IMG/VR virus record: IMGVR_UViG_3300027971_004105
Source: a virus
Taxonomy: Duplodnaviria; Caudoviricetes
Direction: 5' to 3' (one strand)
Length of the DNA: 64,000 nt
Shown piece after piece: positions 7,130 to 32,461 of this stretch. Both the position numbers and the translations under genes were made by a program. The notes beneath the pieces are model-generated. The model was not told where the DNA came from and made no database searches. It worked only from the letters and a program-made list of their open reading frames with translations. The number at the start of each line of letters is the position of its first letter. Within the stretch, counting starts at the first letter, position 1.

Positions 7130-7132
7130 ACC

Positions 7133-7161: not shown

Positions 7162-7190
7162 ACAACAATCTAAATCAAAGGAGAAATAAA

Positions 7191-7448: not shown

Positions 7449-7457
7449 TCTATTAAG

Positions 7458-7682: not shown

Positions 7683-7686
7683 TCCT

Positions 7687-7980
7687 ATGAAGTACATCAT
7701 TGACATTGACAACACAATTTGCTATAATAAAGACAGCGATTATGTCAACAGTACACCTGACATCACACGCATAGCCCGAGTTAATCAGTTGTATGATGAT
7801 GGACACGAGATTCATTATTACACAGCAAGAGGTGGCAACTCCGGCAAAGACTGGAGTGAGTTAACTCGTCAACAGTTGACTGAATGGGGGTGCAAATTCC
7901 ATTCAGTAAATTTGGGCAAACCAGTGTATGATGTTTGGGTGGATGACAGAGCAGTAAACGCAAAGGATTTTTTTAAATGA
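7687..7980 (+). CDS. minimal HAD-superfamily phosphatase
   Basis: IIDIDNTIC, YYTARG and GKPVYDVWVDD motifs. Confidence 0.75.
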   Translation: MKYIIDIDNTICYNKDSDYVNSTPDITRIARVNQLYDDGHEIHYYTARGGNSGKDWSELTRQQLTEWGCKFHSVNLGKPVYDVWVDDRAVNAKDFFK

Positions 7981-9035
7981 GAATAGATTATAACATATAT
8001 TTGGATTACGCAGACGTACTATTAAAACCCAAAAGATCCACACTGAGTTCAAGACGTGATGTGGACATGACTAGAGATTTCACATTTCGTAACAGCAAAC
8101 AGCAGATCTCATTTGTGCCTGTGGTTGCCAGCAACATGGATGGTGTGGGCACATTCAGTATGGCCAGAGTATTACAAGAATATAAACTTTTAACTGTGTT
8201 AAGAAAACATTACACCATTGCGGATTGGGACAGAGCAATAGGCACAGGATTAAAATTACAATATGTGAGTGCGTGTACAGGCACAGGAGCCATGTGGGAC
8301 AACAATTCACCAGACTATCAAACTTTAAAAAAAGTTATGGAGAAATATCCAGATGTGAGCATGATTACCATAGATGTGGCCAATGCTTATCATGAACAGT
8401 TTGTGGACTTTGTTAAGAGAATAAGATCTGAATTTCCCGACAAGACCATCATAGCAGGCAATGTGGTATCACCAGAGATGGTGGAAGAATTAATCATCAA
8501 TGGAGCAGACGTGGTCAAAGTGGGCATAGGTCCAGGATCAGTGTGTACCACTCGTACACAAACAGGAGTGGGAGTGCCACAGTTTTCTGCCATCATAGAA
8601 TGTGCTGATGCTGCCAACGGAGTGGGTGGACACATCATTGCTGATGGTGGTTGCACACAGCCAGGAGACATAGCCAAAGCATTGGCTGCAGGTGCTCACA
8701 TGGTGATGTTGGGTGGCATGCTGGCAGCACATGATGAATCAGAATTAGAATTGAAAGATGGCAAAAGAGTATTCTACGGCATGAGTTCCGAATCAGCATT
8801 TGAAAAACACGGCGCAAGAAAAGATGGCTACAGAGGCACTGAAGGCAAAACAGTAAAATTAGACAACAAAGGTCCTGTGAAAGACACTGTGGAACAGATA
8901 TTGGGCGGAGTCAGAAGCACTTGCACTTATATAGGAGCAAGAAGAATCAAAGACATGCCCAAGTGTGCTCACTTCGTGAGAGTGAACAATGTGATCAACA
9001 GAGTTTTTGACAGATATGAAACAAATAAAAATTGA
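7977..9035 (+). CDS. guaC: GMP reductase
   Basis: LDYADVLLKPKRSTL, ASNMDGVG, GIGPGSVCTTR (catalytic Cys), IIADGG, FYGMSS; no CBS domains. Confidence 0.93.
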   Translation: MRIDYNIYLDYADVLLKPKRSTLSSRRDVDMTRDFTFRNSKQQISFVPVVASNMDGVGTFSMARVLQEYKLLTVLRKHYTIADWDRAIGTGLKLQYVSACTGTGAMWDNNSPDYQTLKKVMEKYPDVSMITIDVANAYHEQFVDFVKRIRSEFPDKTIIAGNVVSPEMVEELIINGADVVKVGIGPGSVCTTRTQTGVGVPQFSAIIECADAANGVGGHIIADGGCTQPGDIAKALAAGAHMVMLGGMLAAHDESELELKDGKRVFYGMSSESAFEKHGARKDGYRGTEGKTVKLDNKGPVKDTVEQILGGVRSTCTYIGARRIKDMPKCAHFVRVNNVINRVFDRYETNKN

Positions 9036-9307: not shown

Positions 9308-9319
9308 GGATTGGAACAT

Positions 9320-11992: not shown

Positions 11993-12532
11993 ATGGCAAG
12001 ATACGGCATGGTAGATTTGGAAACATTAGGCACAAGACCAGATGCTGCCATATTGACTGTGGGTGCTATCAAGTTTGATCCACATTCAGACTCAGAACCC
12101 TACGAAGGTAGATATTGGAGATTAAATGTAGATGAACAAACAGCATTGGGTAGAACAGTGGACGAAGGTACCATTGAATGGTGGGGCCGACAGGCACCTG
12201 AGATACGTGATGAGGCATTGGGAGACACAGATCGTGTGATCATAGCAGACTTTGCCAAAGAATTCAACAAATGGTGTGTGGGATTGGATCAGCTGTGGTG
12301 TCAAGGTCCATTGTTTGATTATGCCATCATACAAAATTTATATGACCAAGCTCGCACTCCTGTGCCTTTCAACTATTGGCAAATCAGAGACAGTCGCACA
12401 CTGTTTGATTTGATGCCACAGGATCCTAGAAAGAGCATACAGAGCAGTCTACACAACGCATTGGCTGATTGTTACTATCAAGCCAAATGTGTGCAACAAG
12501 TTTTTAAACATTTAGGAGTAAAGAAAAAATGA
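11993..12532 (+). CDS. DEDDh 3'-5' exonuclease (Rv2179c-like)
   Basis: MVDLETLGT, WCQGPLFD, IRDSRT, HNALADC. Confidence 0.85.
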   Translation: MARYGMVDLETLGTRPDAAILTVGAIKFDPHSDSEPYEGRYWRLNVDEQTALGRTVDEGTIEWWGRQAPEIRDEALGDTDRVIIADFAKEFNKWCVGLDQLWCQGPLFDYAIIQNLYDQARTPVPFNYWQIRDSRTLFDLMPQDPRKSIQSSLHNALADCYYQAKCVQQVFKHLGVKKK

Positions 12533-13260
12533 AAATATTATTGACAGGACATCTAGGGTTTATAGGCAGTGCTTTGTACAATGAACTGATCAAAGAACAC
12601 ACAGTGATAGGCATAGACATCAAAGATGGCAAAGATTTATTAACTTGTGATTTGAATTACACAGTGGATCTTGTGATACATTTGGCAGGATTGGCACAAG
12701 TAAGAGAGAGTTTAAAAAATCCTACCAAGTATTGGGACATAAATGTGATAGCATCTAAAAGATTATTTGATGCATTTCCTCATACAAAAATAATATATGC
12801 CAGTTCTAGTTCAGCATACGAACCAGAAAAAAATCCTTATGCTTTTAGTAAATTTGCCATGGATAAGATTGCTCCAGCACACAGTTTAGGTTTAAGATTT
12901 ACCACTGTATGGTGTGAAGGCGGTAGAGATGGTATGTTTATGACCAAACTATTTGAGAATGACATCAGTTATATCACTGAGCATACTAGAGATTTTGTAC
13001 ATGTGTCTGACATAATATCTGCAATCAAATTATTAATGAACACTTCAATAACAGGAGTGATAGATGTGGGTACCGGAATCAGCAACAATTTGAAAACTTT
13101 GGTAGATTTGGCTGGCATTAAAAATTATAAGTTTGAATCTGGCAATGTATATGAAAGAATGGACAACTGTGCCAATATCAAAGAATTAAGAGATTTAGGT
13201 TGGGAACCAAAAGTTAATGTGATTGATTACATAAAAAACAAATATCACTTGACTTCTTAG
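12529..13260 (+). CDS. NAD-dependent epimerase/dehydratase
   Basis: TGHLGFIG, YASSSSAY, YAFSK (YxxxK). Confidence 0.88.
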   Translation: MKILLTGHLGFIGSALYNELIKEHTVIGIDIKDGKDLLTCDLNYTVDLVIHLAGLAQVRESLKNPTKYWDINVIASKRLFDAFPHTKIIYASSSSAYEPEKNPYAFSKFAMDKIAPAHSLGLRFTTVWCEGGRDGMFMTKLFENDISYITEHTRDFVHVSDIISAIKLLMNTSITGVIDVGTGISNNLKTLVDLAGIKNYKFESGNVYERMDNCANIKELRDLGWEPKVNVIDYIKNKYHLTS

Positions 13261-13277
13261 CCAGGCCTAAATATAAT
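13249..13277 (+). promoter_or_regulatory. sigma70-type promoter overlapping a late TAAATA core
   Basis: TTGACT-17 bp-TATAAT; TAAATA 13268-13273; GGAG SD. Confidence 0.75.
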
Positions 13278-13301
13278 GCATATAACACAACGGAGAACAA
13301 A

Positions 13302-14030
13302 ATGAAAGACATCTTACAAGACGTGGTAGCACACACTCATCAACTGGGGTTTTTGAGTCTAGTGAAAGTTACCAATGAAGAACAAACTAAAATTGAAAGC
13401 ATGGCTGAAGACAGATCAGTTATTCTTTCAGCAACAACCAACAAAAAAGTATCTGAATTTACAGGTACATTTGGTATGCCTAACTTGGACAAACTATCAT
13501 TACACTTGAAATGTCCTGAGTATCAAAAAGACGCCAAATTAAATGTGGTCAAAGCCACACGCAATGGAGTGGAAATTCCCACACACATTCACTTTGAAAA
13601 TGCATCGGGTGATTTCCAAAATGATTACAGATTTATGAACACTGAGATTATCAATGAAAAATTGAAATCAATCAAATTCAAAGGTACATCTTGGAACATT
13701 GAATTTGAACCAGCTCTTGCTAGTATTCAAAGATTAAAACTGCAAGCGGCAGCACACACAGAAGAAACTGTTTTCACAGTTAAAACTGAAAATAAAAATT
13801 TAATGTTTTACTTTGGTGATGCAAACTCTCATGCAGGAAGTTTTACTTTTCAAGCCAATGTGGTAGGTGAATTAAAACAAGGTTGGAGTTGGCCTATTCA
13901 ACAAGTGATTAGTATATTAAATCTTGATGGCAAAATCAAAATGAAGATTAGTGATCAAGGTGCTATGCAAATTTCTGTGGATAGCGGTATTGCTGAATAC
14001 AATTACATATTGCCAGCACAGACCAAATAA
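13302..14030 (+). CDS. probable DNA polymerase sliding clamp (gp45-like)
   Basis: 242 aa with a clamp-like alpha/beta pattern, near polB; no catalytic motif, so inferred. Confidence 0.55.
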   Translation: MKDILQDVVAHTHQLGFLSLVKVTNEEQTKIESMAEDRSVILSATTNKKVSEFTGTFGMPNLDKLSLHLKCPEYQKDAKLNVVKATRNGVEIPTHIHFENASGDFQNDYRFMNTEIINEKLKSIKFKGTSWNIEFEPALASIQRLKLQAAAHTEETVFTVKTENKNLMFYFGDANSHAGSFTFQANVVGELKQGWSWPIQQVISILNLDGKIKMKISDQGAMQISVDSGIAEYNYILPAQTK

Positions 14031-14048
14031 ATTAAGGCAAGTAAAATT

Positions 14049-15512
14049 ATGCACACTGACTTAACAGCACAGCAAAAAGACTATTCAGTATTTCTGCCGG
14101 CGTTGAGCAGTTTCTATGCAAGAGATTTGGGCAAGGCCAGACATGAGAAGGATTATATCCTGCCTCACAGAATTCCGGCTGCTTTTAATCATGGCATAGA
14201 AGGCATGAATTATCTTGTGCCCACCAACACATATTTTCATTACAGATGGCATTTGTACAGTGCAGGTCATGCTGACTTGAACATGGACAAATTTAGTGCC
14301 AGAGATGACATCATAAGAAACCGAGATAGAAAAACCAGTTTTGTACTGGGTGATTCAGGAGGGTTTCAGATTGGTAAAGGAGTATGGGAAGGCAATTGGA
14401 AAGATCCCACTTGTCCTCGAGCCAAGAAGAAGCGAGAACAGGTGCTCACTTGGATGGATGCCAACATGGACTATGGTATGATATTGGATATTCCAGCATG
14501 GGTTTCACGTTCTCCAGAAGGTGCCAAAGCCAGCAATATCAACTCCTATCAGGAAGCAGTGGATGGCACAAGAATCAATAATGATTACTTCATGAAGACT
14601 AGAACAGGTGCTTGTAAGTTTTTAAATGTGCTGCAAGGTGAAAACTTTCAACAAGCAGATGATTGGTATCAGCAGATGAAAGATTACTGCGATCCTAAAA
14701 AATATCCCACAACTCACTTTAATGGTTGGGCAATGGGTGGTCAGAACATGTGTGATGTGCATCTTATATTGAAAAGATTAGTGGCATTAAGATTTGATGG
14801 TTTATTAGAAAAAGGCATTCATGATTGGATGCACTTTTTAGGCACATCCAAACTGGAATGGGCAGTACTATTGACAGACATCCAAAGAGCAGTAAGAAAA
14901 TATCACAATCCAAACTTTACTGTGTCATTTGATTGTGCTTCACCTTTCTTAGCATCAGCCAATGGACAAATTTACACAGAAGTGGATGTCAGAGACAAAC
15001 AAAAATGGTCATATAGAATGGCTGCCAGCATAGATGATAAAAAATATGCCGGTGACACCAGAGCATTTAGAGATGCTGTGTTACAAGAAAAGATATTTGA
15101 CAATTTTCAAGACAGTCCTATCAGTAAAAGATTACAGTTGAAAGATGTCACTTGTTATGCTCCAGGAGATAAAAACAAAGTGGGCGGTGATCCCAAAACA
15201 TCTTGGGATTCATTCAGTTATACCTTACAAATGGCACACAATGTTTGGACACACATCAATGCTGTGCAAGAAGCCAACAGACAGTATGATGCAGGATTAA
15301 CTCCACGCATGTTGGTGGAAGAAAAGTTTGATAAAGTGGCATTCAAAGACATAGTGGAAGCAATATTTGCCACAGACAACAGAGACACAGCAGAAGCAGT
15401 GATTGAGGAATACAGCAGATTTTGGATGAGTATCATAGGTACCAGAGGCGCCACAGGCAAAAAAACAGTGAATGCTTCAACACAGTTTTCTAACTTATTT
15501 GAGGAGGTATAA
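14049..15512 (+). CDS. TGT-fold guanine transglycosylase (DpdA/Tgt-like)
   Basis: GDSGGFQ, MILDIP, NVLQG, AMGG, HFLG, SFDCASP align with TGT active-site motifs. Confidence 0.85.
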   Translation: MHTDLTAQQKDYSVFLPALSSFYARDLGKARHEKDYILPHRIPAAFNHGIEGMNYLVPTNTYFHYRWHLYSAGHADLNMDKFSARDDIIRNRDRKTSFVLGDSGGFQIGKGVWEGNWKDPTCPRAKKKREQVLTWMDANMDYGMILDIPAWVSRSPEGAKASNINSYQEAVDGTRINNDYFMKTRTGACKFLNVLQGENFQQADDWYQQMKDYCDPKKYPTTHFNGWAMGGQNMCDVHLILKRLVALRFDGLLEKGIHDWMHFLGTSKLEWAVLLTDIQRAVRKYHNPNFTVSFDCASPFLASANGQIYTEVDVRDKQKWSYRMAASIDDKKYAGDTRAFRDAVLQEKIFDNFQDSPISKRLQLKDVTCYAPGDKNKVGGDPKTSWDSFSYTLQMAHNVWTHINAVQEANRQYDAGLTPRMLVEEKFDKVAFKDIVEAIFATDNRDTAEAVIEEYSRFWMSIIGTRGATGKKTVNASTQFSNLFEEV

Positions 15513-15513
15513 T

Positions 15514-15708
15514 ATGAGTAAGAAAAATAAAAGTTTAAAGAAATTAGAACATGAGTTTGATTACTATCATAGAAAAACTGAAGAAATGGAACAAGAGCGA
15601 GAACATGATAGAAGTTGGGAGAGTAAAGCATTATTAAAGAATTATAAGAAAATTAAACTGGCAATCAAAACACAGATAGAAGAATACAGAAAACAATTAA
15701 AAGCATGA
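15514..15708 (+). CDS. small coiled-coil hypothetical protein
   Basis: GAGGAGGT SD before ATG 15514. Confidence 0.7.
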   Translation: MSKKNKSLKKLEHEFDYYHRKTEEMEQEREHDRSWESKALLKNYKKIKLAIKTQIEEYRKQLKA

Positions 15709-16592
15709 AAACATTGGTTATAGGATTGGGTATTGGACAATTGTATGTTAGAGTCTTAACACAGTTGGGTCATACAGTATTCACAGTGGATCCTGATCAA
15801 AACAAACAAGCCACATTCACAAATTTAAAAACAGCTCTATTGGCTCATCCCAAATTGGATGCAGTGTTCATATGCACTCCTAATTATACACATGATTCAA
15901 TAGCTCAAACAGTTGCACCACACAGTAGAGTGGTATTTGTAGAAAAACCAGGAGTGCTTAATTCTAAAAGATGGCAGAGTCTTCAACTCACATATCCAAA
16001 CGCTAAATTTATCATGATGAAAAACAATATGTGGCGCACAGTGGAAGAAGAAATGCGTATTAGAATAGATGATGCTGAAGAAGTACACATTAACTGGATC
16101 AATCGCAACAGAGTGCCAGCACCAGGCAGCTGGTTTACTGATAAGAAATTATCATTTGGTGGAGTCAGCAGAGATCTTATGCCACATTTATTGAGTATGT
16201 TCATCTGGTTGAATCCTGATACATATTCTCAATATCAAATAGTTTCTTCCAATCGTAAACAAAATTGGAAATTAAGTGATCTTACTGATACAGAATATGG
16301 TGCAGTAAATTTAGATGGCACATATGATGTGGATGATTGGGCTGAAATGGTGTTCAATAACGGTAAAAAAACATTCAAACTTACTGCTGATTGGCGCAGT
16401 ATGGACAAAGATGACAGAGCACTGCACTGTTATAAAAGAGAAAAATTAATTAAAAGTTTTGAACTAGGATTATGTCCTGAATCAGCTTATGCTGCAATGA
16501 TTCAAGATGTTTTCAATAATATTAACCATGAAGAGTTTTGGAATCAACACAAGCAGTATGATGTGTGGATTCATAATTTAATCAATGACTGA
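15705..16592 (+). CDS. Gfo/Idh/MocA-family oxidoreductase
   Basis: IGLGIG Rossmann motif, ICTPNYTH, VEKP. Confidence 0.85.
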   Translation: MKTLVIGLGIGQLYVRVLTQLGHTVFTVDPDQNKQATFTNLKTALLAHPKLDAVFICTPNYTHDSIAQTVAPHSRVVFVEKPGVLNSKRWQSLQLTYPNAKFIMMKNNMWRTVEEEMRIRIDDAEEVHINWINRNRVPAPGSWFTDKKLSFGGVSRDLMPHLLSMFIWLNPDTYSQYQIVSSNRKQNWKLSDLTDTEYGAVNLDGTYDVDDWAEMVFNNGKKTFKLTADWRSMDKDDRALHCYKREKLIKSFELGLCPESAYAAMIQDVFNNINHEEFWNQHKQYDVWIHNLIND

Positions 16593-17493
16593 AACTAAAC
16601 TGTTATACACCAAAGGAGATGGCATGTTTCATGAAGGAACCATTGACATTCCTGCAGTGAAAGATAATCAGATTCAAGTAAAAAATATCATGACAGGAGT
16701 ATGTCGCAGTGATGTGGACATGATGTTGGGCAAATTCAAAACATTACCATTAAACATGCAAGGTCATGAAGGATTGGCTCAGGTCACACAAGTGGGTGCT
16801 CATGTGCGAGATGTTCAGGTGGGAGATCATGTGGCTACCAGAGGTGAACCTGCTTATGCTGATATTTACAATTGTGATTTTGAAACTTATGTTAAAGTTC
16901 CCACAGCAGATCCCAAATACATTGTGGAACCTGTGGCATGTGGCATTAATGTGATCAAACAATTTGAAACTGCCATTGCTCACAAAGCCAACTACAACAG
17001 CAGACTGCTGCTGATAGGCAGTGGATTTTTATCCTATGTGGTTTACACCTATCTAAAAATAAAAAATTATCATTTTGATATCACTGTGTTGGGCAATCAC
17101 AACAAACAGTTTTGGGGAGATAAACTCACTCACAATGCTGAAGGCGTGTTTGATGTTATTATAGATTTGAACAACAGATCAGAGGTGTTTGACAAGAACA
17201 TGTTCAACACTGAAGCATTGTTGATACTGGCTGCTGAAAAAACAGAATCTATTCGCACTAATTTTGCTGATTTATTATGGAATGCTGTAACAGTAGGCTT
17301 TCCAAGTCCTAGAAATAAAAAATTTATAGAGTGCATGCGTGAAGCAGTGGAATTAATCTCTGCAGGCAAACTAGATGTGTCCAATTTTTGGACCAAAGGT
17401 TACAGCAGAAGCACAGAGTGGAACAATGCATTTGCAGATGCTACAAATAGAAAAAATGGCTATGCCAGAGGGTATATAGATTGGAGAAAATAA
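16585..17493 (+). CDS. Zn-dependent medium-chain dehydrogenase/reductase
   Basis: GVCRSD, GHEG, VEPVACG, IGSGF. Confidence 0.85.
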   Translation: MTETKLLYTKGDGMFHEGTIDIPAVKDNQIQVKNIMTGVCRSDVDMMLGKFKTLPLNMQGHEGLAQVTQVGAHVRDVQVGDHVATRGEPAYADIYNCDFETYVKVPTADPKYIVEPVACGINVIKQFETAIAHKANYNSRLLLIGSGFLSYVVYTYLKIKNYHFDITVLGNHNKQFWGDKLTHNAEGVFDVIIDLNNRSEVFDKNMFNTEALLILAAEKTESIRTNFADLLWNAVTVGFPSPRNKKFIECMREAVELISAGKLDVSNFWTKGYSRSTEWNNAFADATNRKNGYARGYIDWRK

Positions 17494-18014
17494 TGTTGGA
17501 CACACAATCGAGAAAAAAAGTAAAATTTTTCATAGGCAAAGAAGTGGAGAACACTGCTATGAAACATCAAATAACTTTATTTGTGGTGGGTGTACAAAAC
17601 GTGGTGGACATTGTGAGGTATACTCAAAAAACTGCTGTGGCACACGTGTATTTAGGCACCAGTCAAAGTTTTACTCCAGAGACAGAAGAAGATTGGAGAG
17701 ATTGGAACAATATTATTAACAAATTATTAGATTTGGGTCTTTGGGTCACATTGGATTATGATGTGCAATATGCAGAAATGGTATCAAGAATGAATTGGCA
17801 TAAGAACCATCATTTTATCAATATGATATCTGTGAAAATACCCAACATCAAAACATTCAACTCAAACACAGTGATCAAACTGGATGACGTCACGTGGGGT
17901 GCTACCAATACAGGAGTTTGGACACATGATTTGGACAAATTGATGACCAAAAAAACCTATACAGATTGGAGTGAATACAAGGGCGATTATCCTGTGGACA
18001 TTGACAAGCATTGA
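17493..18014 (+). CDS. conserved hypothetical protein
   Basis: TAATG coupling; FFIGKEVENT...TLFVVG and WGATNTGVW motifs. Confidence 0.7.
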   Translation: MLDTQSRKKVKFFIGKEVENTAMKHQITLFVVGVQNVVDIVRYTQKTAVAHVYLGTSQSFTPETEEDWRDWNNIINKLLDLGLWVTLDYDVQYAEMVSRMNWHKNHHFINMISVKIPNIKTFNSNTVIKLDDVTWGATNTGVWTHDLDKLMTKKTYTDWSEYKGDYPVDIDKH

Positions 18015-18029
18015 AAAGGTTGTTATACT
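18001..18029 (+). promoter_or_regulatory. sigma70 promoter with extended -10, followed by late core TAAATA (18037-18042)
   Basis: TTGACA-17 bp-TATACT with TGn. Confidence 0.8.
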
Positions 18030-18051
18030 ATAAACCTAAATACTGAAACAC

Positions 18052-18453
18052 ATGAGCATTATGAAATCTAAAATTTGGGTAACATTTCGCAGAGAAGGCA
18101 CGCACAAATATCCTGCAGCATTAACAGATCCAAAATTAAAAACTGGTGACGAATATGATGTGAGTTTTTTGGGTTATCCTCACAGACACATATTTCATTT
18201 TCGAGTGGCTATTGAAGTATTTCATGATGACCGAGACATTGAGTTTATACAGTTTAAAAGATGGTTGGAAAACTTATATGGCAAAGGCACATTAGAGTTG
18301 GATTATAAAAGTTGTGAAATGATTGGCGCTGATCTTTATCAACAGATCAATTCAAGATATCCCAATAGAGAAGTCACAATAGACGTGAGCGAAGATGGTG
18401 AGAACGGTGCCACAATGACGTGGGCAGCCAATTCATCCATAACAATCAACTAG
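18052..18453 (+). CDS. QueD-like T-fold protein (DpdL-type)
   Basis: LGYPHRHIF = LxxxHRHxF in place of QueD CxxxHGH; DIEFIQFKRWL, SCEMI. Confidence 0.75.
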   Translation: MSIMKSKIWVTFRREGTHKYPAALTDPKLKTGDEYDVSFLGYPHRHIFHFRVAIEVFHDDRDIEFIQFKRWLENLYGKGTLELDYKSCEMIGADLYQQINSRYPNREVTIDVSEDGENGATMTWAANSSITIN

Positions 18454-18461
18454 GGCGGGCC

Positions 18462-19553
18462 ATGAAGATTTACATTGTGGATCTAGAAGAAGTAGAAACT
18501 AGATATACCAAACAATGGAAAAAATATCTACCCATTCAATTAAAAAGACACACCAATAATGAAATCCAAGTGATCAGCGGAGGAGATGCTGTGAAAAGTA
18601 CCACCCCGGGTGCTTTTTTAAACTTTGGATTCACCAACATGTACAAAAGCAGACAATTAGAACAGATTGCTGAAATGTTCTGTGCGGGAGATATCAAAGA
18701 TGGTGATTATTTCTTATACACTGATGCTTGGAATCCCACAGTACTGCAACTCAAGTACATGGCAGAATTATTAAATGTAAAAATTAAAATAGGTGGCATG
18801 TGGCACGCAGGATCATATGATCCACAAGACTTTTTGGGCAGACTGATAGGTGATAAACCTTGGGTGCGTCTGGCTGAACGCAGCATGTTTGAATCATTTG
18901 ATCACAATTACTTTGCCACTGATTTTCATATTGATATGTTCTTACACAATTTGATGGATCTAGGCAGACTGGCTGACAAAGAAACAGTAGCAGAAATGTT
19001 TCACACAGGCAAAATAGTGAGATCGGGATGGCCTATGGAATATTTGGATGCTGACTTGACTGGTTATAAAAATATTGAAAAAAAGAATATTATTCTTTTC
19101 CCGCATAGATTGGCTCCGGAAAAACAACACAACATATTTCAAGATTTGGCAAAAGAAATGCCACAGTATGAATTTGTCACTTGTTTGGATCGTTGCCAGT
19201 CAAAAAATGACTATCACAATCTTTTAGCAGAAGCCAAATTGATTTTCAGTGCTAATTTACAAGAAACATTAGGAATCAGTTGGTATGAAGGTGCAGTATT
19301 AGGAGTTATTCCAATGATTCCTGATCGTTTAAGTTACAAAGAAATGGCTCAAGAAGAATTCAAATATCCTTCGGAATGGACAGAATCTTTTGAACTGTAT
19401 AAGAAACACAAAGATTTGTTAAAAGCAAGAATAGATGACTACATGATCAACTACAAAAAGTATGCTCCATTGGTACACAAACAAAAAATATCATTGGCAG
19501 AAAACTTTTTTAGTGGCAAACAACTTTACCAAAGGATTACAAATGGAAAATAA
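18462..19553 (+). CDS. GT-B fold glycosyltransferase (GT4-like)
   Basis: FPHRLAPEKQ and QETLGISWYEG (EX7E-like); ATG 18462. Confidence 0.8.
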   Translation: MKIYIVDLEEVETRYTKQWKKYLPIQLKRHTNNEIQVISGGDAVKSTTPGAFLNFGFTNMYKSRQLEQIAEMFCAGDIKDGDYFLYTDAWNPTVLQLKYMAELLNVKIKIGGMWHAGSYDPQDFLGRLIGDKPWVRLAERSMFESFDHNYFATDFHIDMFLHNLMDLGRLADKETVAEMFHTGKIVRSGWPMEYLDADLTGYKNIEKKNIILFPHRLAPEKQHNIFQDLAKEMPQYEFVTCLDRCQSKNDYHNLLAEAKLIFSANLQETLGISWYEGAVLGVIPMIPDRLSYKEMAQEEFKYPSEWTESFELYKKHKDLLKARIDDYMINYKKYAPLVHKQKISLAENFFSGKQLYQRITNGK

Positions 19554-19914
19554 AACTTTAGAACAAAATCAACCAGACAGCACAACGTATAAAGTAGATA
19601 TAAACTATCAAGCAAATGTGGGCACAAATAACATTGTGGCCAGCACAGTGAGCGTGCCATATGGATTTGGTGGATCAGGCAATGGTGTTACTACCACAGG
19701 CATAGATTTTGAAGCAGATGCAATGAAAGGTATAAACTTTGAGGATTACAAACTGCCTATTATGTTTGAGGATATCATGCCTGAAATGCACAAAATAAAA
19801 GAAATGTGTGAGTTGTATCCGTCATTGGATATTGCTTTTCAAAAATTTAAAAATGTTTACAATATTGTGATAGATGATTATGACAATAAAATGCAACTGA
19901 AAATGCCTTTTTAA
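19543..19914 (+). CDS. hypothetical protein
   Basis: ATG 19543 overlaps GT end; C-terminal YPSLDIAFQKFKNVY motif. Confidence 0.6.
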   Translation: MENKTLEQNQPDSTTYKVDINYQANVGTNNIVASTVSVPYGFGGSGNGVTTTGIDFEADAMKGINFEDYKLPIMFEDIMPEMHKIKEMCELYPSLDIAFQKFKNVYNIVIDDYDNKMQLKMPF

Positions 19915-19915
19915 T

Positions 19916-20371
19916 ATGGAAACAGCCAATAAAAATTATTTTACCATGATCCAGATGCGTGCAGCTCTGCTGAATATACATCAGCAATTGACTGAACAAC
20001 AATGGCAACCTCAGGTAATATTAGGATTAAACAGAGGAGGATGTATTCCTGCTATCTATTTGTCACACAAATTGGATGTTCCTCATCATGTGTTAAATGT
20101 AAGTTTACGAGATCATGCTGATACTCCTGATTTACACACATTGGAAAAAGTATATGCTTGGCAAAAAAGAGTATTGATAGTGGATGATATCAATGATACA
20201 GGTGCCACATTTAATTATATTATGAATAACTTTGGCAAACCAGAAAGATTAAAGTTTGCTGTGATATTGCACAACACAGTGAGCACCTACAAAGATATAG
20301 ATTACAAAGGTTATGAAATCAACAAACTGGAAGATCCACGTTGGATAGTGTTTCCTTGGGAGCAATGGTAG
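19916..20371 (+). CDS. type I phosphoribosyltransferase (purine PRT-like)
   Basis: LGLNRGG and LIVDDINDTGAT PRPP-binding loop; WIVFPWE. Confidence 0.9.
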   Translation: METANKNYFTMIQMRAALLNIHQQLTEQQWQPQVILGLNRGGCIPAIYLSHKLDVPHHVLNVSLRDHADTPDLHTLEKVYAWQKRVLIVDDINDTGATFNYIMNNFGKPERLKFAVILHNTVSTYKDIDYKGYEINKLEDPRWIVFPWEQW

Positions 20372-20372
20372 T

Positions 20373-20750
20373 ATGGAAAAAATTGACACTTTGAATCAAG
20401 CTCAAAAAGAAGGCAGAACTCCTTGGACCAAAGTGATATATGATTTGAAAGATTGTGTGTGGTATGAGGATGGATATCCTGTGACAGAAGGACATGCATT
20501 GTTGGTACCCAAACAAGCCAGTCAAAATATGATTGTGAAATGTTTTGAATTAGCATTGAAAATTGGCAATGAAAATATTGCCAAAGGGTTGATTGACGGC
20601 TACAACATAGGTATCAACATGGGCGAGGCAGCAGGTCAAACTGTTCCTTATCCGCATGTTCATTTGATTCCAAGACGCAAGGGTGACATGGAAGATCCTA
20701 GGGGTGGTGTGCGTCATGTGATCCCTCACAAAGGAAATTATAAAAAATGA
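20373..20750 (+). CDS. HIT-family hydrolase
   Basis: GHALLVPK, AAGQTVPYPHVHLIPR. Confidence 0.88.
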   Translation: MEKIDTLNQAQKEGRTPWTKVIYDLKDCVWYEDGYPVTEGHALLVPKQASQNMIVKCFELALKIGNENIAKGLIDGYNIGINMGEAAGQTVPYPHVHLIPRRKGDMEDPRGGVRHVIPHKGNYKK

Positions 20751-21574
20751 GCAGAGCACTTTTCATAGGAGACAGTCACACTTGTGGATATGTCACTGTG
20801 CCTAACAAAACAGGTCCAGGCAGTTATACCTATTGGAATGATAACAACTATGCTGAAATTTACAACACAGTGAACGATAAACCCGTGAGTATCTATGCAC
20901 ATGCTGGAACAACTAATAGAATGTACACTGATTGGATGAAACACATGTTTAACACATTTCCAGACACCGATGAAGTTTTTCTTTGTTTGGCTCCATTGAA
21001 TAGATTTGTGTTGGCTTTTGATGAGAAACTCACAGATGAAGCACTGCCTTTGGATTATTTTGTGCATGAATGTGTGGAAAGCACACCCACAGTAAAAAAG
21101 TATATGGATCTATTGGTCAAAGAAGGCAGAGTGCAATTGTACAACAAACCCACAGCAGAAGATTATGAAAAGTTTCCAGGTTTAAAAATTTCTGAAACAG
21201 ATGGATTGCAACAACCAGACGTAAGAAAAAACACATTTATGGAGATAAAATTATTTTTTGAATTGAACACACATTTGGAAAGACGTGATTTTTTATTGAA
21301 TGTGTTTGCTTGGGATAGAATCTGTGCTGAAAACAATGCCAAACTTTATGTGTTTAATTTTATGAATAGATTGAAATGGCCCAAGAGTTTGGAATATTAC
21401 GGTGCATTAAAAAATACCACAGTAGCAGAAAAAACTGTTGAGCAATATATGTTGGACAATGGTATTGATCCTCAAAAATATTTGCTGCATGACAAAGAAC
21501 ATTACAATACAGAATATCACAAAACGATTGTGGAAAAATACATACCATGGATAAAAAATCAAAAAAAATCCTAA
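20747..21574 (+). CDS. SGNH/GDSL-like hypothetical protein
   Basis: FIGDSHT block I and C-terminal DKEH (DxxH). Confidence 0.55.
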   Translation: MSRALFIGDSHTCGYVTVPNKTGPGSYTYWNDNNYAEIYNTVNDKPVSIYAHAGTTNRMYTDWMKHMFNTFPDTDEVFLCLAPLNRFVLAFDEKLTDEALPLDYFVHECVESTPTVKKYMDLLVKEGRVQLYNKPTAEDYEKFPGLKISETDGLQQPDVRKNTFMEIKLFFELNTHLERRDFLLNVFAWDRICAENNAKLYVFNFMNRLKWPKSLEYYGALKNTTVAEKTVEQYMLDNGIDPQKYLLHDKEHYNTEYHKTIVEKYIPWIKNQKKS

Positions 21575-22164
21575 TCATTGGTGATAGTTTTGCTTGTGAG
21601 TGGCCCAATGGCCTTGCTGGATGGCCCGCTCAGTTGGCTCAACAACATGATGTGACCAATTTGGCTCAGGCAGGTGTGGGCGAATATAAAATATTAAGAC
21701 AACTGCTAAACTTTACCAAAGAAAATCCTTGGTGGCAGCATGACTATGATTGTGTGATTGTGTGTCATACCAGTCCCAGCAGAGTACACACTCCCGTTCA
21801 TCCCATACACAAACAAGGACTGCACAAAGATTGTGATCTCATATGGAATGACATTGAATCTCGCAACAGTTGGTTCAATAAAAGTTTAGACACTGCTAAA
21901 AATTGGTTCAAGTATCACTATGATGATCAATACCAAAAAGACATCTACAGATTGATACGCAGAGATATCAACAGAAAACTGGAGCAAATCACCAGTTTAC
22001 ACATAGATAATTTTGGTATCAGTAACCATTTTGTTGAGGAACAGAATCTGTTGGACTTCAGTATGATCTGGCCTAACTACAGAGGAGAAATTAATCATTA
22101 CAATGATGAAGGAAACCAAATTGTTTTGGCACAAATCATTGACAAACTGGAACAAATCTGTTAA
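21547..22164 (+). CDS. SGNH/GDSL-like hypothetical protein
   Basis: IIGDSFA, NLAQAGVG and C-terminal INHY. Confidence 0.55.
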   Translation: MDKKSKKILIIGDSFACEWPNGLAGWPAQLAQQHDVTNLAQAGVGEYKILRQLLNFTKENPWWQHDYDCVIVCHTSPSRVHTPVHPIHKQGLHKDCDLIWNDIESRNSWFNKSLDTAKNWFKYHYDDQYQKDIYRLIRRDINRKLEQITSLHIDNFGISNHFVEEQNLLDFSMIWPNYRGEINHYNDEGNQIVLAQIIDKLEQIC

Positions 22165-22167
22165 AAT
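22139..22167 (+). promoter_or_regulatory. sigma70 promoter with extended -10, upstream of folE
   Basis: TTGACA-17 bp-TAAAAT with TGn; AAGGAG SD. Confidence 0.78.
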
Positions 22168-22187
22168 AATACAATATAAGGAGTATA

Positions 22188-22874
22188 ATGAAAGTATCAG
22201 AAAAGATTAAACAAAGACTGATTGCGGCTGGCGTGAACTATCATGCTGATGACAATATTTCAGCCTACATCGAAAAAGATGAATTGTCTCTGCTGGAACA
22301 AGAATTAACAGAATCATTCCGATCTGTGCTAAACAGTCTTGTGATTGATACTGACAATGATCCTAATAGTAAAAACACAGCACATAGATTGGCCAAAATG
22401 TATTTGACAGAAATCATGAGCGGAAGATATGAATCTAGACCCGATGCCACAGCATTTCCCAATGTGGGAGGAAATGCTTACACAGGCATGTTGGTGGTGC
22501 GTAGTGAATTAAAATCTATCTGCAGTCATCATCATCAACCAGTGAGCGGTGTGGCGTATATTGGAATCATACCCAATGGCAAAGTGATAGGATTGAGCAA
22601 ATACACAAGAATAGCACAATGGTGTGCTAGAAGAGGCACACTGCAAGAGTCTTTGTGCAATGACATAGCACATGAAATTGAAATGGCCACTGGCAGCAGA
22701 AACATAGGTGTTTACATACAAGCCACACATGGCTGTTGTGAAAACCGAGGCATAATGGCACACAGTTCATTGACTCAGACCACTGTGTTAAAAGGTGCTT
22801 TCAAAGATGATGCTGGCACTAAAAAAGAATTTATGGATAATATTAACCTGCAACAACAATTTGCACCAAGATAG
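22188..22874 (+). CDS. folE: GTP cyclohydrolase I
   Basis: SICSHHH, IGLSKYTRI, RGTLQE, HGCCENRG. Confidence 0.95.
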   Translation: MKVSEKIKQRLIAAGVNYHADDNISAYIEKDELSLLEQELTESFRSVLNSLVIDTDNDPNSKNTAHRLAKMYLTEIMSGRYESRPDATAFPNVGGNAYTGMLVVRSELKSICSHHHQPVSGVAYIGIIPNGKVIGLSKYTRIAQWCARRGTLQESLCNDIAHEIEMATGSRNIGVYIQATHGCCENRGIMAHSSLTQTTVLKGAFKDDAGTKKEFMDNINLQQQFAPR

Positions 22875-22883
22875 GAGACACAG

Positions 22884-23087
22884 ATGACCAATAAAGAAGG
22901 ACCATTTTACGCAGCATTCGGAGGTGATACCACAGGTATTATCAAACAAGAATTAATCACTTACAAAGTTAAAGATGGTGTGCTGTACAAAGAAACAGTG
23001 AAGAGAGATTATCACAGCCAAGGAGATTACATTGATTCATGTGAGTCAATTCCTTTGAAAGAAAACAAACATGAACATACAGCCTAA
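22884..23087 (+). CDS. hypothetical protein
   Basis: GGAG SD; 67 aa. Confidence 0.65.
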   Translation: MTNKEGPFYAAFGGDTTGIIKQELITYKVKDGVLYKETVKRDYHSQGDYIDSCESIPLKENKHEHTA

Positions 23088-23238
23088 AGACACCAGTAAA
23101 GGTCATTTCTATGTGTCACTAATCAAGAGTGCATTTAGAATCATTGCAGGCATTAGTTTAATATTTGGTAACTTTATTACTGCTGGATTTTTATTCATAC
23201 TGGCAGAATTATTAGGAGTGGTAGAGGAATTAGTATAA
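23071..23238 (+). CDS. small membrane protein, 55 aa, absent from the ORF track
   Basis: Hand translation MNIQPKDTSKGHFYVSLIKSAFRIIAG...LAELLGVVEELV*; TAATG coupling to queE. Confidence 0.7.
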   Translation: MNIQPKDTSKGHFYVSLIKSAFRIIAGISLIFGNFITAGFLFILAELLGVVEELV

Positions 23239-24098
23239 TGAGCAAAATTAAAATAGCAGAATTATTTTACAGCATACAAGGAGAAGGCAGGTACATGGGT
23301 GTGCCTTCAGTGTTCTTGAGAACATTTGGCTGCAACTTTACTTGTGCTGGCTTTGGTTTGCCTCGAGGCATGCGTAGTGATGAGAATGACAAAGTATTTG
23401 AACAGCACAAACAATTTCCTTTTAAAAGCTATGAAGAATTGCCATTGGTGAACACAGGCTGTGATTCGTATGCATCTTGGGATCCTCGATTCAAAGATTT
23501 ATCTCCCATGCTGACATCAGATGCTATTGTGGAAAGAACAATGGAAATATTGCCACACAAACAATGGGTGGATGAACATTTTATATTCACAGGCGGTGAA
23601 CCATTGCTGGGTTGGCAACGTGCTTATCCAGATGTATTGGAACATGCAAAGATGCAGGCTTTAAAAGAGATCACTTTTGAAACCAATGGCACACAAAAAC
23701 TACACAAAGATTTTAAAGATTATTTGACTCAATGGAATCAGAAGAATGGTAGAACTAAAGAATCCATATCATTCTCTGTGAGTGCAAAATTAAGTGTGAG
23801 CGGAGAAAAACGTGAAGAAGCTATACTGCCTGAAGTGGTGGCAGAATATGGAGATGTAGGGCATGTGTATTTGAAATTTGTGGTGGCCACCAAGGAAGAT
23901 GCTGATGAGGCATTCCAAGCAGTGGCTGATTATCGTAAAGCAGGATTCTCGGGATCAGTTTATTTGATGCCTGTGGGTGGAGTAGAAAGTGTCTATCATA
24001 TGAACAATAGAACAGTGGCAGAACTGGCAATGAAGATGGGATATAGATACAGTGATAGATTACAGGTGCCATTGTTTAAAAACGCATGGGGTACATAA
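23238..24098 (+). CDS. queE: 7-carboxy-7-deazaguanine synthase (radical SAM)
   Basis: ELFYSIQGEG, FLRTFGCNFTC...GCDS, FTGGEPLL, FETNGT, SVSAK, RLQ. Confidence 0.92.
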   Translation: MSKIKIAELFYSIQGEGRYMGVPSVFLRTFGCNFTCAGFGLPRGMRSDENDKVFEQHKQFPFKSYEELPLVNTGCDSYASWDPRFKDLSPMLTSDAIVERTMEILPHKQWVDEHFIFTGGEPLLGWQRAYPDVLEHAKMQALKEITFETNGTQKLHKDFKDYLTQWNQKNGRTKESISFSVSAKLSVSGEKREEAILPEVVAEYGDVGHVYLKFVVATKEDADEAFQAVADYRKAGFSGSVYLMPVGGVESVYHMNNRTVAELAMKMGYRYSDRLQVPLFKNAWGT

Positions 24099-24487
24099 TG
24101 GAGAAAAAAGATATGGGAATATTTGATAAAGTTAAAAAAATATTTAAAAAAGAAGACACAACAGAAAACAAAAGCGAATCACATCAAGCATTGTTGCGTG
24201 AAAAAGAAGCAGCAACCAAAGAAGGCAAGCCTTGGGTGGCAGTGTTGGAGACTCACGTGAACAAAGAAAACATCAGAAATGGATTTTTTGAACTGGATTG
24301 GAACAATGCTTTCATAGAGGATTTATTAGATGCAGGTTACAAAGGTGAAACCAATGAAGAAATAGTGGAAGGTTGGTTTAGAGAAGTCACTAGAAACGTG
24401 CTGAAGGATCAAGGACAGGACGCCACACGTGATGCTGGATACATCAATGTGAACAAATTAGGAAAAGATAGATCGGAAATCAGTTAA
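24098..24487 (+). CDS. conserved hypothetical protein
   Basis: TAATG coupling; GFFELDWN motif. Confidence 0.7.
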   Translation: MEKKDMGIFDKVKKIFKKEDTTENKSESHQALLREKEAATKEGKPWVAVLETHVNKENIRNGFFELDWNNAFIEDLLDAGYKGETNEEIVEGWFREVTRNVLKDQGQDATRDAGYINVNKLGKDRSEIS

Positions 24488-25488
24488 TGACCTACTTGCT
24501 TGTGGATTTAGCCAATGTATTTTTTAGATCACGTCACGTAACTGACGGAAGTCTTAATGATAAGATTGGTATGGCTCTACATATTACTCTTAACGGTGTA
24601 AGAAAAGTATGGAAAGATTTCAAAGGAGACCATGTGGTATTCTGTTTGGAAGGACGCAGTTGGCGCAAAGATTATTATCTTCCATACAAACGCAATAGAT
24701 CTGATGCTCGTGCAGCACTCACAGCCAAAGAAAAAGAAGAAGAAACAATATTTTGGGAAACTTTTGATAATTTTAAAGAATTTATACAAACTAAGACCAA
24801 TTGCACAGTGTTGCAAAATCCAAGATTAGAAGCAGATGATTTAATCTCTGCTTGGATACAAGCTCATCCCAAAGACCAGCACGTGATCATCAGCACAGAC
24901 AGTGATTTTGCACAATTGATTGCTCCCAATGTGAAACAATACAATGGTATTTCAGAAGTGACCATCACTGATAAAGGTTATTTTGATCAAAAAGGTAATC
25001 CTGTAAAAGATAAAAAAACAGGTGAAAACAAAACAGCACCTGAACCAGAATGGCAATTGTTTGAAAAATGTGTGCGTGGAGACAGCACAGACAATATATT
25101 TTCTGCTTTTCCAGGAGTAAGAACCAAAGGAACCAAGACCAAAGTAGGATTGCGTGAAGCATATGAAGATAGAAAAAATAAAGGATTCAACTGGAACAAC
25201 ATGATGTTGCAACGTTGGATGGATCATGAAGGAGTAGAGCACAGAGTATTGGATGATTACAATAGAAATGTTATATTGTGCGATTTACGAGCACAACCAG
25301 ATGAAATAAAACAAATTATGGCTCAAACTGTGGCAGAAGCAGCCAACCCCAAAGCAGTGGAACAAGTGGGAATCAAATTGATTAGATTTTGTGCCAAATG
25401 GGACATGCAAAGAATTGTGGATCAAGCACAGAGTTATGCTGAGCCATTGAATGCCAAATATAAAATAACAGAAGAGGTCACAGCATGA
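24487..25488 (+). CDS. rnh: T4 RNase H-like 5'-3' exonuclease/flap endonuclease
   Basis: LVDLAN, YKRNR, LEADD, ISTDSDFAQL, RGDSTDNI. Confidence 0.9.
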   Translation: MTYLLVDLANVFFRSRHVTDGSLNDKIGMALHITLNGVRKVWKDFKGDHVVFCLEGRSWRKDYYLPYKRNRSDARAALTAKEKEEETIFWETFDNFKEFIQTKTNCTVLQNPRLEADDLISAWIQAHPKDQHVIISTDSDFAQLIAPNVKQYNGISEVTITDKGYFDQKGNPVKDKKTGENKTAPEPEWQLFEKCVRGDSTDNIFSAFPGVRTKGTKTKVGLREAYEDRKNKGFNWNNMMLQRWMDHEGVEHRVLDDYNRNVILCDLRAQPDEIKQIMAQTVAEAANPKAVEQVGIKLIRFCAKWDMQRIVDQAQSYAEPLNAKYKITEEVTA

Positions 25489-27331: not shown

Positions 27332-28435
27332 ATGGCCAAAGCAGACAAAGACAGTTTAGCAGTTAGACAGGTCAGTCCTAACAATGCTAAAAGTAGCATA
27401 ACACACGCAATCAACAAAAAACGTCCATTATTTTTATGGGGAGCACCTGGTATTGGTAAATCAGATGTGGTACATCAAATTGCTGCCAGCATTGATGCTC
27501 ATGTGATCGACATAAGATTAAGTCTATGGGAACCCACAGATATCAAAGGTATTCCATACTACAACATGAAAGAAAACAACATGATTTGGGCCGCCCCAAG
27601 TGAACTGCCCAATGAAGAATTTGCTAAAAAACACAAAAAAATTATATTGTTTTTGGATGAAATGAATTCAGCCGCACCATCAGTTCAAGCGGCAGCATAT
27701 CAATTGATCCTAAACAGAAGAGTGGGCACATACAGGCTGCCTGACAATGTGGTTATTATTGCCGCTGGTAATAGAGAAGCGGACAGAGGTATCACATACA
27801 GAATGCCTGCGCCATTGGCCAATAGATTTATCCATATAGAAATGAAAGTGGATTTTGATGATTGGTTTCAGTGGGCTGTACAGAACAACATGCACAAAGA
27901 TGTGGTGGGGTTCTTAACATTCAGCAAGAAAGATTTATACGATTTTGAACCCAAGAGTTCAGGCAGATCGTTCGCAACTCCAAGATCTTGGGCATTTGTC
28001 AGTGAATTATTGTCTGACGAAGTGGATGAGAATACCACAGCCGATCTAGTTAGTGGAGCAGTAGGCGAAGGATTAGCAGTAAAATTCATGGCTCACAGAA
28101 AAGTGGCTAAGGACCTACCAAATCCGTCTGACATTTTGTCAGGGAAGGTAGAAAAAATGAAGACTAAAGAAATCAGTGCCATGTATTCCTTAACAGTCTC
28201 CCTTTGCTACGAACTGAAAGACGCATGTGATAAGAAAGACAAGAAGTTTAATGATAAAGTCAATAAATTTCTTAGATTTTCTATGGATAATTTCGATACT
28301 GAAATTGTTGTGATGGGCATTAAACTTGCTCTTACGCAATATCAATTACCGATTGATCCAGACAGTATCAAATGTTTCGATGAGTTTCATGAAAAGTACG
28401 GCAAGTATGTTATTGCCGCACAAAAGGTTGCTTAA
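27332..28435 (+). CDS. MoxR-like AAA+ ATPase
   Basis: GAPGIGKS Walker A, LFLDE Walker B, AAGN sensor I, PLANRF Arg finger. Confidence 0.9.
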   Translation: MAKADKDSLAVRQVSPNNAKSSITHAINKKRPLFLWGAPGIGKSDVVHQIAASIDAHVIDIRLSLWEPTDIKGIPYYNMKENNMIWAAPSELPNEEFAKKHKKIILFLDEMNSAAPSVQAAAYQLILNRRVGTYRLPDNVVIIAAGNREADRGITYRMPAPLANRFIHIEMKVDFDDWFQWAVQNNMHKDVVGFLTFSKKDLYDFEPKSSGRSFATPRSWAFVSELLSDEVDENTTADLVSGAVGEGLAVKFMAHRKVAKDLPNPSDILSGKVEKMKTKEISAMYSLTVSLCYELKDACDKKDKKFNDKVNKFLRFSMDNFDTEIVVMGIKLALTQYQLPIDPDSIKCFDEFHEKYGKYVIAAQKVA

Positions 28436-28446
28436 CTGTGACCATT

Positions 28447-28472
28447 CACAGGGCATTTTCGAGTGCCCTGTG
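28447..28472 (+). other. intergenic stem-loop with UUCG loop
   Basis: CACAGGGCA-TT-TTCG-AG-TGCCCTGTG; no U-tract after it. Confidence 0.7.
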
Positions 28473-28489
28473 TACAAATAAAGATTCTT

Positions 28490-32455: not shown

Positions 32456-32461
32456 TTAATT

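Follow-up and report, generated by a model that had tools for sequence, protein, structure and literature searches.

A window of 64,000 nucleotides (IMG/VR virus record IMGVR_UViG_3300027971_004105; by the window the whole analysed stretch is meant) from a large (jumbo) freshwater phage contains a gene cluster that is read here as a QueC-less, DpdL-type 7-deazaguanine module with built-in glycosylation. The module would give rise to a sugar-bearing 7-deazaguanine in the phage DNA, tailored in this lineage by accessory enzymes, a reading that we find evenly poised between acceptance and rejection. The main components are a DpdA3-like transglycosylase, the QueD paralog DpdL, a glycosyltransferase (GT) and the protein p177, together with FolE and QueE. 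An earlier inspection of the letters alone (the original prediction) had proposed a glycosylated or otherwise elaborated deazaguanine for the interval 14049-24098, whose two ends coincide with the beginning of the DpdA-like gene and the end of QueE. All of its gene calls stand at the coordinates then given, all on the + strand (Table 1), and the canonical QueD, QueF and QueC, which it had noted as absent from the cluster, were found nowhere in the window; a canonical QueD is present elsewhere on contigs of relatives. Of its glycosylated-deazaguanine reading, the QueC-less DpdL-type module with a GT inside it is upheld, while the redox, SGNH-like and epimerase genes fall outside the conserved set. 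p177, an invariant core gene, was missing from its list.

The product of 14049-15512 is probably a DpdA3-like DNA guanine transglycosylase, for which the support is indirect yet consistent. The protein has a DSGGFQ motif and D102 is invariant. It has no match in Pfam (E 0.01), in PHROG or among PDB sequences, and single-sequence hhalign comparisons of the family with the DpdA3 proteins of X1, ACP17 and phiST were not significant. Significance was obtained only when both profiles were widened. The family profile, widened with homologues from PA5oct, Phosso and Vibrio, then aligned with a DpdA3 profile (ACP17, X1, BUCT-ZZ01 and phiST) over 198 columns with a probability of 82% and E 1.1e-5, and the motifs DSGGxQ, LD-IP, QG, GG, HxLG and S-x-D line up in this alignment. 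The homologues in PA5oct, Phosso, ACP17 and X1 have no match to PF01702 (TGT) or PF23859 (DpdA) at E 1, and the Atlas language-model neighbours of the protein include clusters with both of these families. The homologous genes adjoin QueE in PA5oct and QueF, QueC and FolE in Vibrio phage 2.275.O.

DpdL is identified by motif as well as by homology. The segment LGYPHRHIF fits the published motif LxxxHRHxF, where QueD has CxxxHGH, and none of L40, H44, R45, H46 and F48 varies among 24 relatives. With tblastn the identity was 55% to the DpdL of ACP17 (2e-38) and 33% to that of phiST (1e-8), and the DpdL profile matched reference DpdL proteins at 1e-49 and 2.5e-20. The catalytic Cys of PTPS/QueD is absent. 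The profile had no PDB match and its hhalign comparison with the QueD of one relative was not significant; the relation to the QueD/PTPS T-fold rests on a published HHpred result (PMC10516641). DpdL has been proposed as a decarboxylase of 7-carboxy-7-deazaguanine (CDG), a prediction that is unproven even for the reference proteins (PMC10516641).

In FolE the zinc-site residues C112, H114, H115 and C183 are conserved, with NCBIfam scores under the equivalog cut-offs. The QueE-like protein has NCBIfam scores far under the cut-offs and a segment, ELFYSIQGEG, that fits the N-termini of five QueE models. Its three invariant cysteines are arranged as C32-x3-C36-x38-C75, with an insert of about 38 residues between the second and third cluster ligands. 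The arrangement differs both from CX3CX2C and from the CX14CX2C form of Burkholderia QueE.

The GT is, on the evidence of its predicted structure, a genuine GT4-type enzyme. The Pfam match to Glycos_transf_1 is weak (18.9 bits, cut-off 26.4); the homologue in X1 passes with 45.5 bits. The GT-B fold named in the original prediction was nevertheless confirmed by an AlphaFold model (pLDDT 85.6, pTM 0.85) and by Foldseek. BshA, MshA and PimA, all retaining GT4 enzymes, were the best PDB matches (E 6e-11), and for these and for glycogen synthase the probability was 1.00 and TM values were 0.6-0.68. The model matched the GT of ACP17 at E 7e-31. The EX7E motif is present as QETLGISWYE, in which neither E268 nor E276 varies across 24 sequences. 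A complex prediction of the GT with DpdL, made without controls, gave a score of 0.00 and says nothing on binding.

p177 was modelled with a pLDDT of 91. The protein contains no cysteine and therefore cannot be a radical SAM enzyme. No clear family was found with Foldseek against the PDB, VIA wide, AFDB clusters, or Atlas by shape and by features. The nearest named shapes are partial barrels of QueE (TM 0.56-0.57, Z 6.2), and the best values over all structure searches are a Z of 6.7, a TM of 0.57 to QueE and one unnamed AFDB cluster; novelty of the fold is not claimed. Sequence searches against solved structures, with single sequences and with profiles, gave no useful match for DpdA, GT, p177 or DpdL. 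Isoelectric points were uninformative as a clue to DNA binding, since DpdA is itself acidic.

The phylogenetic distribution of the genes separates a core from its passengers. With the DpdA protein, 80 related IMG/VR loci were gathered and scanned by family profiles; counts refer to the 58 loci that extend 3 kb or more beyond dpdA or to the 34 that extend 8 kb or more. p177, DpdL and GT were each found after DpdA in all 58. Among the 34 longer loci, FolE is present in 33, the purine phosphoribosyltransferase (PRT) in 31, QueE in 28 and the HIT protein in 26. The epimerase is restricted to 16 of them, the Gfo/Idh/MocA oxidoreductase and the Zn-dependent dehydrogenase (Zn-ADH) to 15, always as a pair, and the two SGNH-like proteins p275 and p205 to 13 and 9, respectively. 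At least four gains or losses of the Gfo and Zn-ADH pair are needed on the DpdA tree. The fixed module is DpdA-p177-DpdL-GT, followed in most relatives by PRT, HIT, FolE and QueE, and the redox, esterase and epimerase genes form a lineage-specific cassette. The oxidoreductases, the SGNH pair and the epimerase, all named in the original prediction, are patchy in distribution and lie outside the conserved set.

Other genes are found in the same region in some relatives. A Trp-halogenase-like flavoenzyme is encoded directly after dpdA in locus L074 (11623-12843) and a B12-binding, class B methylase-like radical SAM enzyme directly after GT in locus L062 (14914-16368). Indole or pyrrole rings are the substrates of both enzyme types. 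An IMPDH/GuaC gene adjoins PRT inside the module in L037 and L021, and L034 has ThyX. The variation of the locus resembles that of hypermodification loci.

Among 50,697 phage records, the GT family was found in 22 and DpdL in 28. The 17 records with both are the PA5oct group, Phosso, ACP17, X1/BUDD and BCSR5, to which the Synechococcus phage BUCT-ZZ01 was added by profile search. The GT adjoins DpdL or lies within a few genes of it in PA5oct, ACP17, Phosso, X1, BCSR5 and BUCT-ZZ01. The order is QueD-x-FolE-p177-DpdA-GT-DpdL-QueE in ACP17 and polymerase-p242-DpdA-GT-DpdL-...-PRT-QueE in PA5oct. PRT also occurs in BUCT-ZZ01, where it adjoins QueE and stands between QueE and QueD. No QueC above cut-off was found in the complete genomes of PA5oct, ACP17, Phosso, BUCT-ZZ01 and X1 or in five large related contigs. 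The reading proposed earlier had been made to depend on whether the GT is linked to this transglycosylase clade in other genomes; such a linkage was found in 58 of 58 loci and in five or six cultured lineages. DpdL is found without a GT in phiST and RHph_I1_18.

The five records with a GT and no DpdL are of the PhiXhv-12 type. The one checked, Xanthomonas phage PhiXhv-12 (L094), encodes at 4864-8950 the set GlmS, PIG-L de-N-acetylase, GT (a distant homologue) and Gfo-Idh-MocA, with FolE and a DpdA-like gene elsewhere in the genome, away from this set. The arrangement offers a precedent, independent of this locus, for the cooperation of a Gfo enzyme with this GT. In BCSR5 a PIG-L-like gene (a weak Pfam match, below cut-off) lies between DpdL and GT. 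The PIG-L and GlmS neighbours, together with the BshA/MshA-like fold, point to a UDP-N-acetylhexosamine (UDP-HexNAc) donor.

The closest described system is that of phiST (PMC10516641; the DpdL/DpdA3 system, Nucleic Acids Res 2023), whose DNA has plain 2'-deoxy-7-deazaguanosine (dDG) in full replacement of deoxyguanosine. Like the locus described here, phiST has FolE, QueD, QueE, a DpdL with the LxxxHRHxF motif (33% identical) and a DpdA3-type transglycosylase, and no QueC. It differs in the lack of GT4, p177, PRT and HIT, and its DpdA3 has 259 aa compared with 487 aa here. When DpdA and DpdL of phiST and of ACP17 were expressed in E. coli, no dDG was obtained and the authors suspected that further enzymes were needed (PMC10516641).

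Two cultured phages share more of the module. Behind its polymerase gene, PA5oct, a Pseudomonas jumbo phage (Wroclawvirus), has the same succession of DpdA (35% identity), GT (45%), DpdL (56%), PRT and QueE, and the Acidovorax phage ACP17 has the core FolE-p177-DpdA-GT-DpdL-QueE; p177 occurs in both. Both are without the Gfo and Zn-ADH pair, the SGNH pair, HIT and the epimerase. The DNA of PA5oct resists cleavage at several G-containing restriction sites and is cut by END nucleases, which sense hypermodified DNA; the base was not identified and there was no mass spectrometry.

A GT-B enzyme within a DNA-modification set, surrounded by lineage-specific sugar-tailoring genes, is also found in the glucosyl-5-hydroxymethylcytosine system of T4, with its alpha- and beta-glucosyltransferases, and in the later systems for glycosylated 5-hydroxymethylcytosine and 5-hydroxycytosine, and the logic of modifying the base first and adding the sugar second would be shared. 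In those systems the sugar is placed on the side-chain hydroxyl of a pyrimidine, in contrast to a deazapurine without an evident hydroxyl here, and no relation in sequence between the BshA-like GT4 and the T4 enzymes could be detected. BshA and MshA, of bacillithiol and mycothiol synthesis, are the best structural matches of the GT (E 6e-11) and share its EX7E motif, and PIG-L and GlmS stand beside related phage GTs as in pathways that transfer N-acetylglucosamine and then deacetylate it. The identity is however only 13-15%, the N-terminal acceptor domain of the phage GT has invariant motifs of its own, and the window lacks a cysteine ligase, a thiol pathway and a PIG-L gene. The tubercidin and toyocamycin pathways are similar in leading through FolE, QueD and QueE to CDG and then to a PRT and a GuaC-type enzyme. 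They differ in that no adenylosuccinate enzymes are present here, a DNA transglycosylase is, and PRT and GuaC look like ordinary salvage enzymes. In the collection of papers searched, none describes a glycosylated 7-deazaguanine. The core is accordingly of a known kind, the DpdL/DpdA3 system, whereas the invariant GT, p177 and the sugar cassette are not explained by any described deazaguanine pathway. What this window contributes is the cassette of Gfo and Zn-ADH, SGNH proteins and epimerase, the PRT-HIT pair and the nearby GuaC.

The following course of modification is proposed. FolE, QueD (placed elsewhere in the genome) and QueE would convert GTP to CDG, which is established enzymology for these families. 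DpdL would remove the carboxyl group, giving 7-deazaguanine, and the DpdA3-like transglycosylase would exchange genomic guanine for the deazapurine after replication, both as proposed in the phiST literature. From its linkage to these genes, the GT4 enzyme, probably with p177, would add a sugar to the deazaguanine before or after its entry into DNA, most likely of the HexNAc type from a UDP donor. In this lineage the Gfo/Idh/MocA enzyme and Zn-ADH, the SGNH pair and the epimerase may tailor the sugar or its donor, and the purine PRT and GMP reductase may recycle the guanine released by DpdA. The expected benefit would be escape from restriction and from other DNA-targeting defences. That phiST, with plain dDG, has DpdL and no GT is counted in favour of a sugar-bearing base.

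In its most specific form the proposal is that the DNA of this phage family, of PA5oct and of ACP17 contains the first known sugar-bearing base of purine type, a GT4-glycosylated 7-deazaguanine with a C- or N-glycosidic bond that is diversified by lineage; we put this forward tentatively, with doubt slightly ahead of belief. The diversification would involve oxidoreductases and SGNH esterases here, a de-N-acetylase in BCSR5-type phages and a halogenase-like flavoenzyme or a B12 radical SAM methylase elsewhere, acting on the sugar or on the pyrrole ring. Because 7-deazaguanine has no hydroxyl, the sugar would have to be bound through C or N, or the acceptor would have to be a different one. As a conjecture, the electron-rich pyrrole carbon and the indole-type tailoring enzymes of relatives fit a chemistry directed at the ring.

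Several points weigh against a sugar-bearing base. We know of no GT4 enzyme that makes a C- or N-linkage on a base without a hydroxyl, and the closest solved relatives of the GT use small-molecule acceptors (malate, inositol phosphate) and neither DNA nor bases. A glycosylated base in any of the GT-bearing phages is predicted from genomes, and the decarboxylase role of DpdL is a prediction too. DpdL occurs without GT in phiST and RHph_I1_18, and the two are therefore separable. The Gfo and Zn-ADH enzymes, the SGNH proteins and the epimerase are patchy and tied to the GT by position only, and unrelated genes (ThyX, GuaC) are also inserted in this region of replication and nucleotide metabolism.

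The DNA could instead contain plain dDG, or its carboxylated form dCDG, as in phiST, with GT, p177 and the sugar and redox enzymes serving another target and merely sharing an early/middle gene block. They might act on the host envelope, on a protein of the phage or its host, or in making a small-molecule glycoside as BshA/MshA do. This is unlikely in our estimation, though not far-fetched: in phiST dDG is made by DpdL and DpdA3 in the absence of a GT, the nearest solved relatives of the GT glycosylate small molecules, and the GT of PhiXhv-12 belongs to a GlmS/PIG-L/Gfo cluster that lies away from the DpdA-like gene in a genome without DpdL. A separate target is harder to reconcile with the succession p177-DpdL-GT that immediately follows DpdA at all 58 loci, with the adjacency of GT and DpdL in five or six unrelated cultured lineages, with a GT family confined to phages with deazaguanine genes wherever checked, and with the finding that DpdA and DpdL of ACP17 are insufficient for dDG (PMC10516641). 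A route through nucleotides before replication, similar to that of tubercidin and toyocamycin, is improbable. PRT would join CDG or 7-deazaguanine to phosphoribosyl pyrophosphate (PRPP), HIT, GuaC and further enzymes would process the product, the polymerase would incorporate it and the GT would act on a nucleotide intermediate. In tubercidin biosynthesis (TubE and TubD) a PRT uses CDG and a GuaC homologue acts next. PRT is present in 31 of 34 loci and placed between QueE and QueD in BUCT-ZZ01, and GuaC-type genes adjoin PRT in L037 and L021 and lie 5 kb upstream here. The DpdA-type transglycosylase, which is the accepted route into DNA, is however invariant, and no pathway-specific kinase or reductase was seen. 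PRT is most like ordinary xanthine-guanine PRTs and GuaC scores above the equivalog cut-off for GMP reductase; salvage of the released guanine therefore explains both.

FolE, a PTPS-like protein, a reductase and a group-1 GT together correspond to the logic of a pteridine glycoside pathway, and one relative infects Synechococcus. The genes might on this basis make a glycosylated pterin, comparable to the biopterin glucoside of cyanobacteria and separate from DNA modification, with FolE, the PTPS-like DpdL, Gfo and Zn-ADH as reductases and the GT. This is very improbable, as DpdL is without the catalytic Cys of PTPS/QueD, the module includes DpdA and QueE (the latter in 28 of 34 loci), the Gfo and Zn-ADH reductases are missing from most relatives, and the hosts include Pseudomonas, Acidovorax, Sinorhizobium and Xanthomonas, in which pterin glycosides have no known role.

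The accessory enzymes retain the residues expected of their families to differing degrees. The Gfo/Idh/MocA oxidoreductase has the EKP motif (VEKPG) and conserved D157 and H161. In Zn-ADH C40, H61 and E62 are conserved, and weak NCBIfam matches were obtained to threonine, alcohol and inosose dehydrogenases. The epimerase has partial matches to the NCBIfam GalE and heptose-epimerase models. p275 and p205 appear SGNH-like on conserved Ser/Asp/His motifs only. The conserved residues are G8, S10, H11, D249 and H252 in p275, and a GDS at 12-14 (G12, D13, S14) with H184 in p205; the hhalign alignment of the two is limited to a 14-residue GDS block. p275 had no family match in profile searches, and Atlas by features returned unnamed viral clusters only. 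PRT has the PRPP-binding loop VLIVDDINDTGAT. The HIT protein has YPHVHLI as its motif, where Tyr replaces the first His of the triad and H95 and H97 are conserved. Guanine salvage accounts for PRT, and perhaps for HIT, equally well as sugar chemistry does.

The locus is situated in a region of replication and nucleotide metabolism and belongs to one unbroken run of + strand genes (11993-25488). The GMP reductase score of GuaC is 475.6 bits, with an equivalog cut-off of 397 in NCBIfam. The homologues of p242, the gene always found immediately 5' of dpdA, carry the labels virion structural protein in PA5oct, where the protein was detected by mass spectrometry, and sliding clamp in Phosso. On these labels p242 is more likely a replication gene, and it was dropped as a member of the pathway. 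The acidic protein of about 123 aa at 19543..19914 had no family match in profile searches. In the same nucleotide-metabolism region an NT5C-like 5'(3')-deoxyribonucleotidase is encoded at 3991-4710. Further downstream, 27332-29728 holds a pair of genes conserved in phages, the first for a MoxR-type AAA ATPase and the second for a DUF2201 metallopeptidase/VWA-like protein, and 31307-33610 encodes, on the + strand, a protein with an Mtd-N (major tropism determinant N-terminal) domain and then, on the - strand, a radical SAM enzyme with an HMPTM-type zinc ribbon. By megablast, none of the 50,697 phage records contains DNA nearly identical to this stretch.

Table 1. Position and basis of identification of genes in and around the deazaguanine module. 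Counts are of the 58 or 34 loci defined in the text.
Feature	Position	Strand	Basis or remark
GMP reductase GuaC	7977..9035	+	5 kb upstream of module, just upstream of the DNA polymerase gene
Family B DNA polymerase	9311-11992		flanks the block
SDR NDP-sugar epimerase/dehydratase-like, short, 243 aa	12529..13260	+	PF01370 2.5e-20, phrog_540; 16/34 loci
p242 (phrog_12062)	13302-14030		always immediately 5' of dpdA
DpdA3-like DNA guanine transglycosylase (putative), long form, 487 aa	14049..15512	+	motif, profile, neighbourhood
Small open reading frame, 78 aa	15472..15708	+	follows dpdA and precedes the oxidoreductase pair; 45-100% identical in relatives (tblastn)
Gfo/Idh/MocA NAD(P) oxidoreductase	15705..16592	+	PF01408 5.4e-10 (40.4 bits), PF22725 29 bits, both above cut-off
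Medium-chain Zn-dependent dehydrogenase (Zn-ADH), 302 aa	16585..17493	+	PF08240 3.2e-10
p177, core protein	17493..18014	+	58/58 loci; also in ACP17 and PA5oct
DpdL, QueD/T-fold paralog, 133 aa	18052..18453	+	motif and homology
GT4-type GT-B glycosyltransferase, 363 aa from ATG at 18462	18462..19553	+	model and motif
Acidic protein, about 123 aa	19543..19914	+	usually 3' of GT; 30/34 loci
Purine (xanthine-guanine type) PRT	19916..20371	+	PF00156 1.8e-14, 53.8 bits; PDB 1vdm purine PRT 8.5e-15
Hint-type HIT protein	20373..20750	+	PF01230 7.6e-12, 46.2 bits; PDB HIT proteins 2e-8
p275, SGNH-like hydrolase/esterase, 275 aa	20747..21574	+	GDSH 8-11 and DxxH 249-252 conserved
p205, second SGNH-like protein, 205 aa	21547..22164	+	near relatives only
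FolE, GTP cyclohydrolase I	22188..22874	+	PF01227 1.9e-40, 138.6 bits; NCBIfam FolE 1.4e-41
Small open reading frame, 67 aa	22884..23087	+	kept in near relatives (tblastn)
QueE-like radical SAM CDG synthase	23238..24098	+	phrog_2076 6e-50, full length
RNase H/FEN	24487-25488		among the genes around the block
DEDD exonuclease			among the genes around the block

The genes of the module, taken as co-transcribed in the original prediction, are on the same strand and tightly packed, with no terminator-like site between them. Three sigma-70-like sites with 11 of 12 consensus positions are found at 13249-13277, 18001-18029 and 22139-22167, just before p242, DpdL and FolE. Their positions suggest as many as three transcription units instead of a single one, although sites of this kind are overall no more frequent than expected by chance. 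The phage was encountered repeatedly in metagenomes from freshwater and lakes, in many studies. Contigs of lake metatranscriptomes from four studies overlap parts of p242, DpdA, DpdL, GT, PRT, HIT, FolE and QueE, several of them with 0-1 mismatches; this is a weak hint of expression of the module, with DNA carry-over as a possible source, and nothing follows from the parts left uncovered. Profile searches gave more than 7,900 DpdA and at least 8,000 GT homologues in metagenomes. In protein databases the profiles of DpdA and GT matched close relatives without annotation and reached no distant cellular context.

To our knowledge, all glycosylated DNA bases described so far are pyrimidines. A glycosylated deazapurine, if true, would add a new class to the natural chemistry of DNA and would probably involve a new kind of glycosyl transfer. 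It would also explain why DpdA and DpdL failed to yield dDG in E. coli, and would identify the G modification of PA5oct-type therapeutic jumbo phages. The module is abundant in metagenomes and carriers of it are already in culture. For such phages the base would bear on the evasion of restriction, on defences that sense modification (END nucleases, Dag glycosylases) and on sequencing bias.

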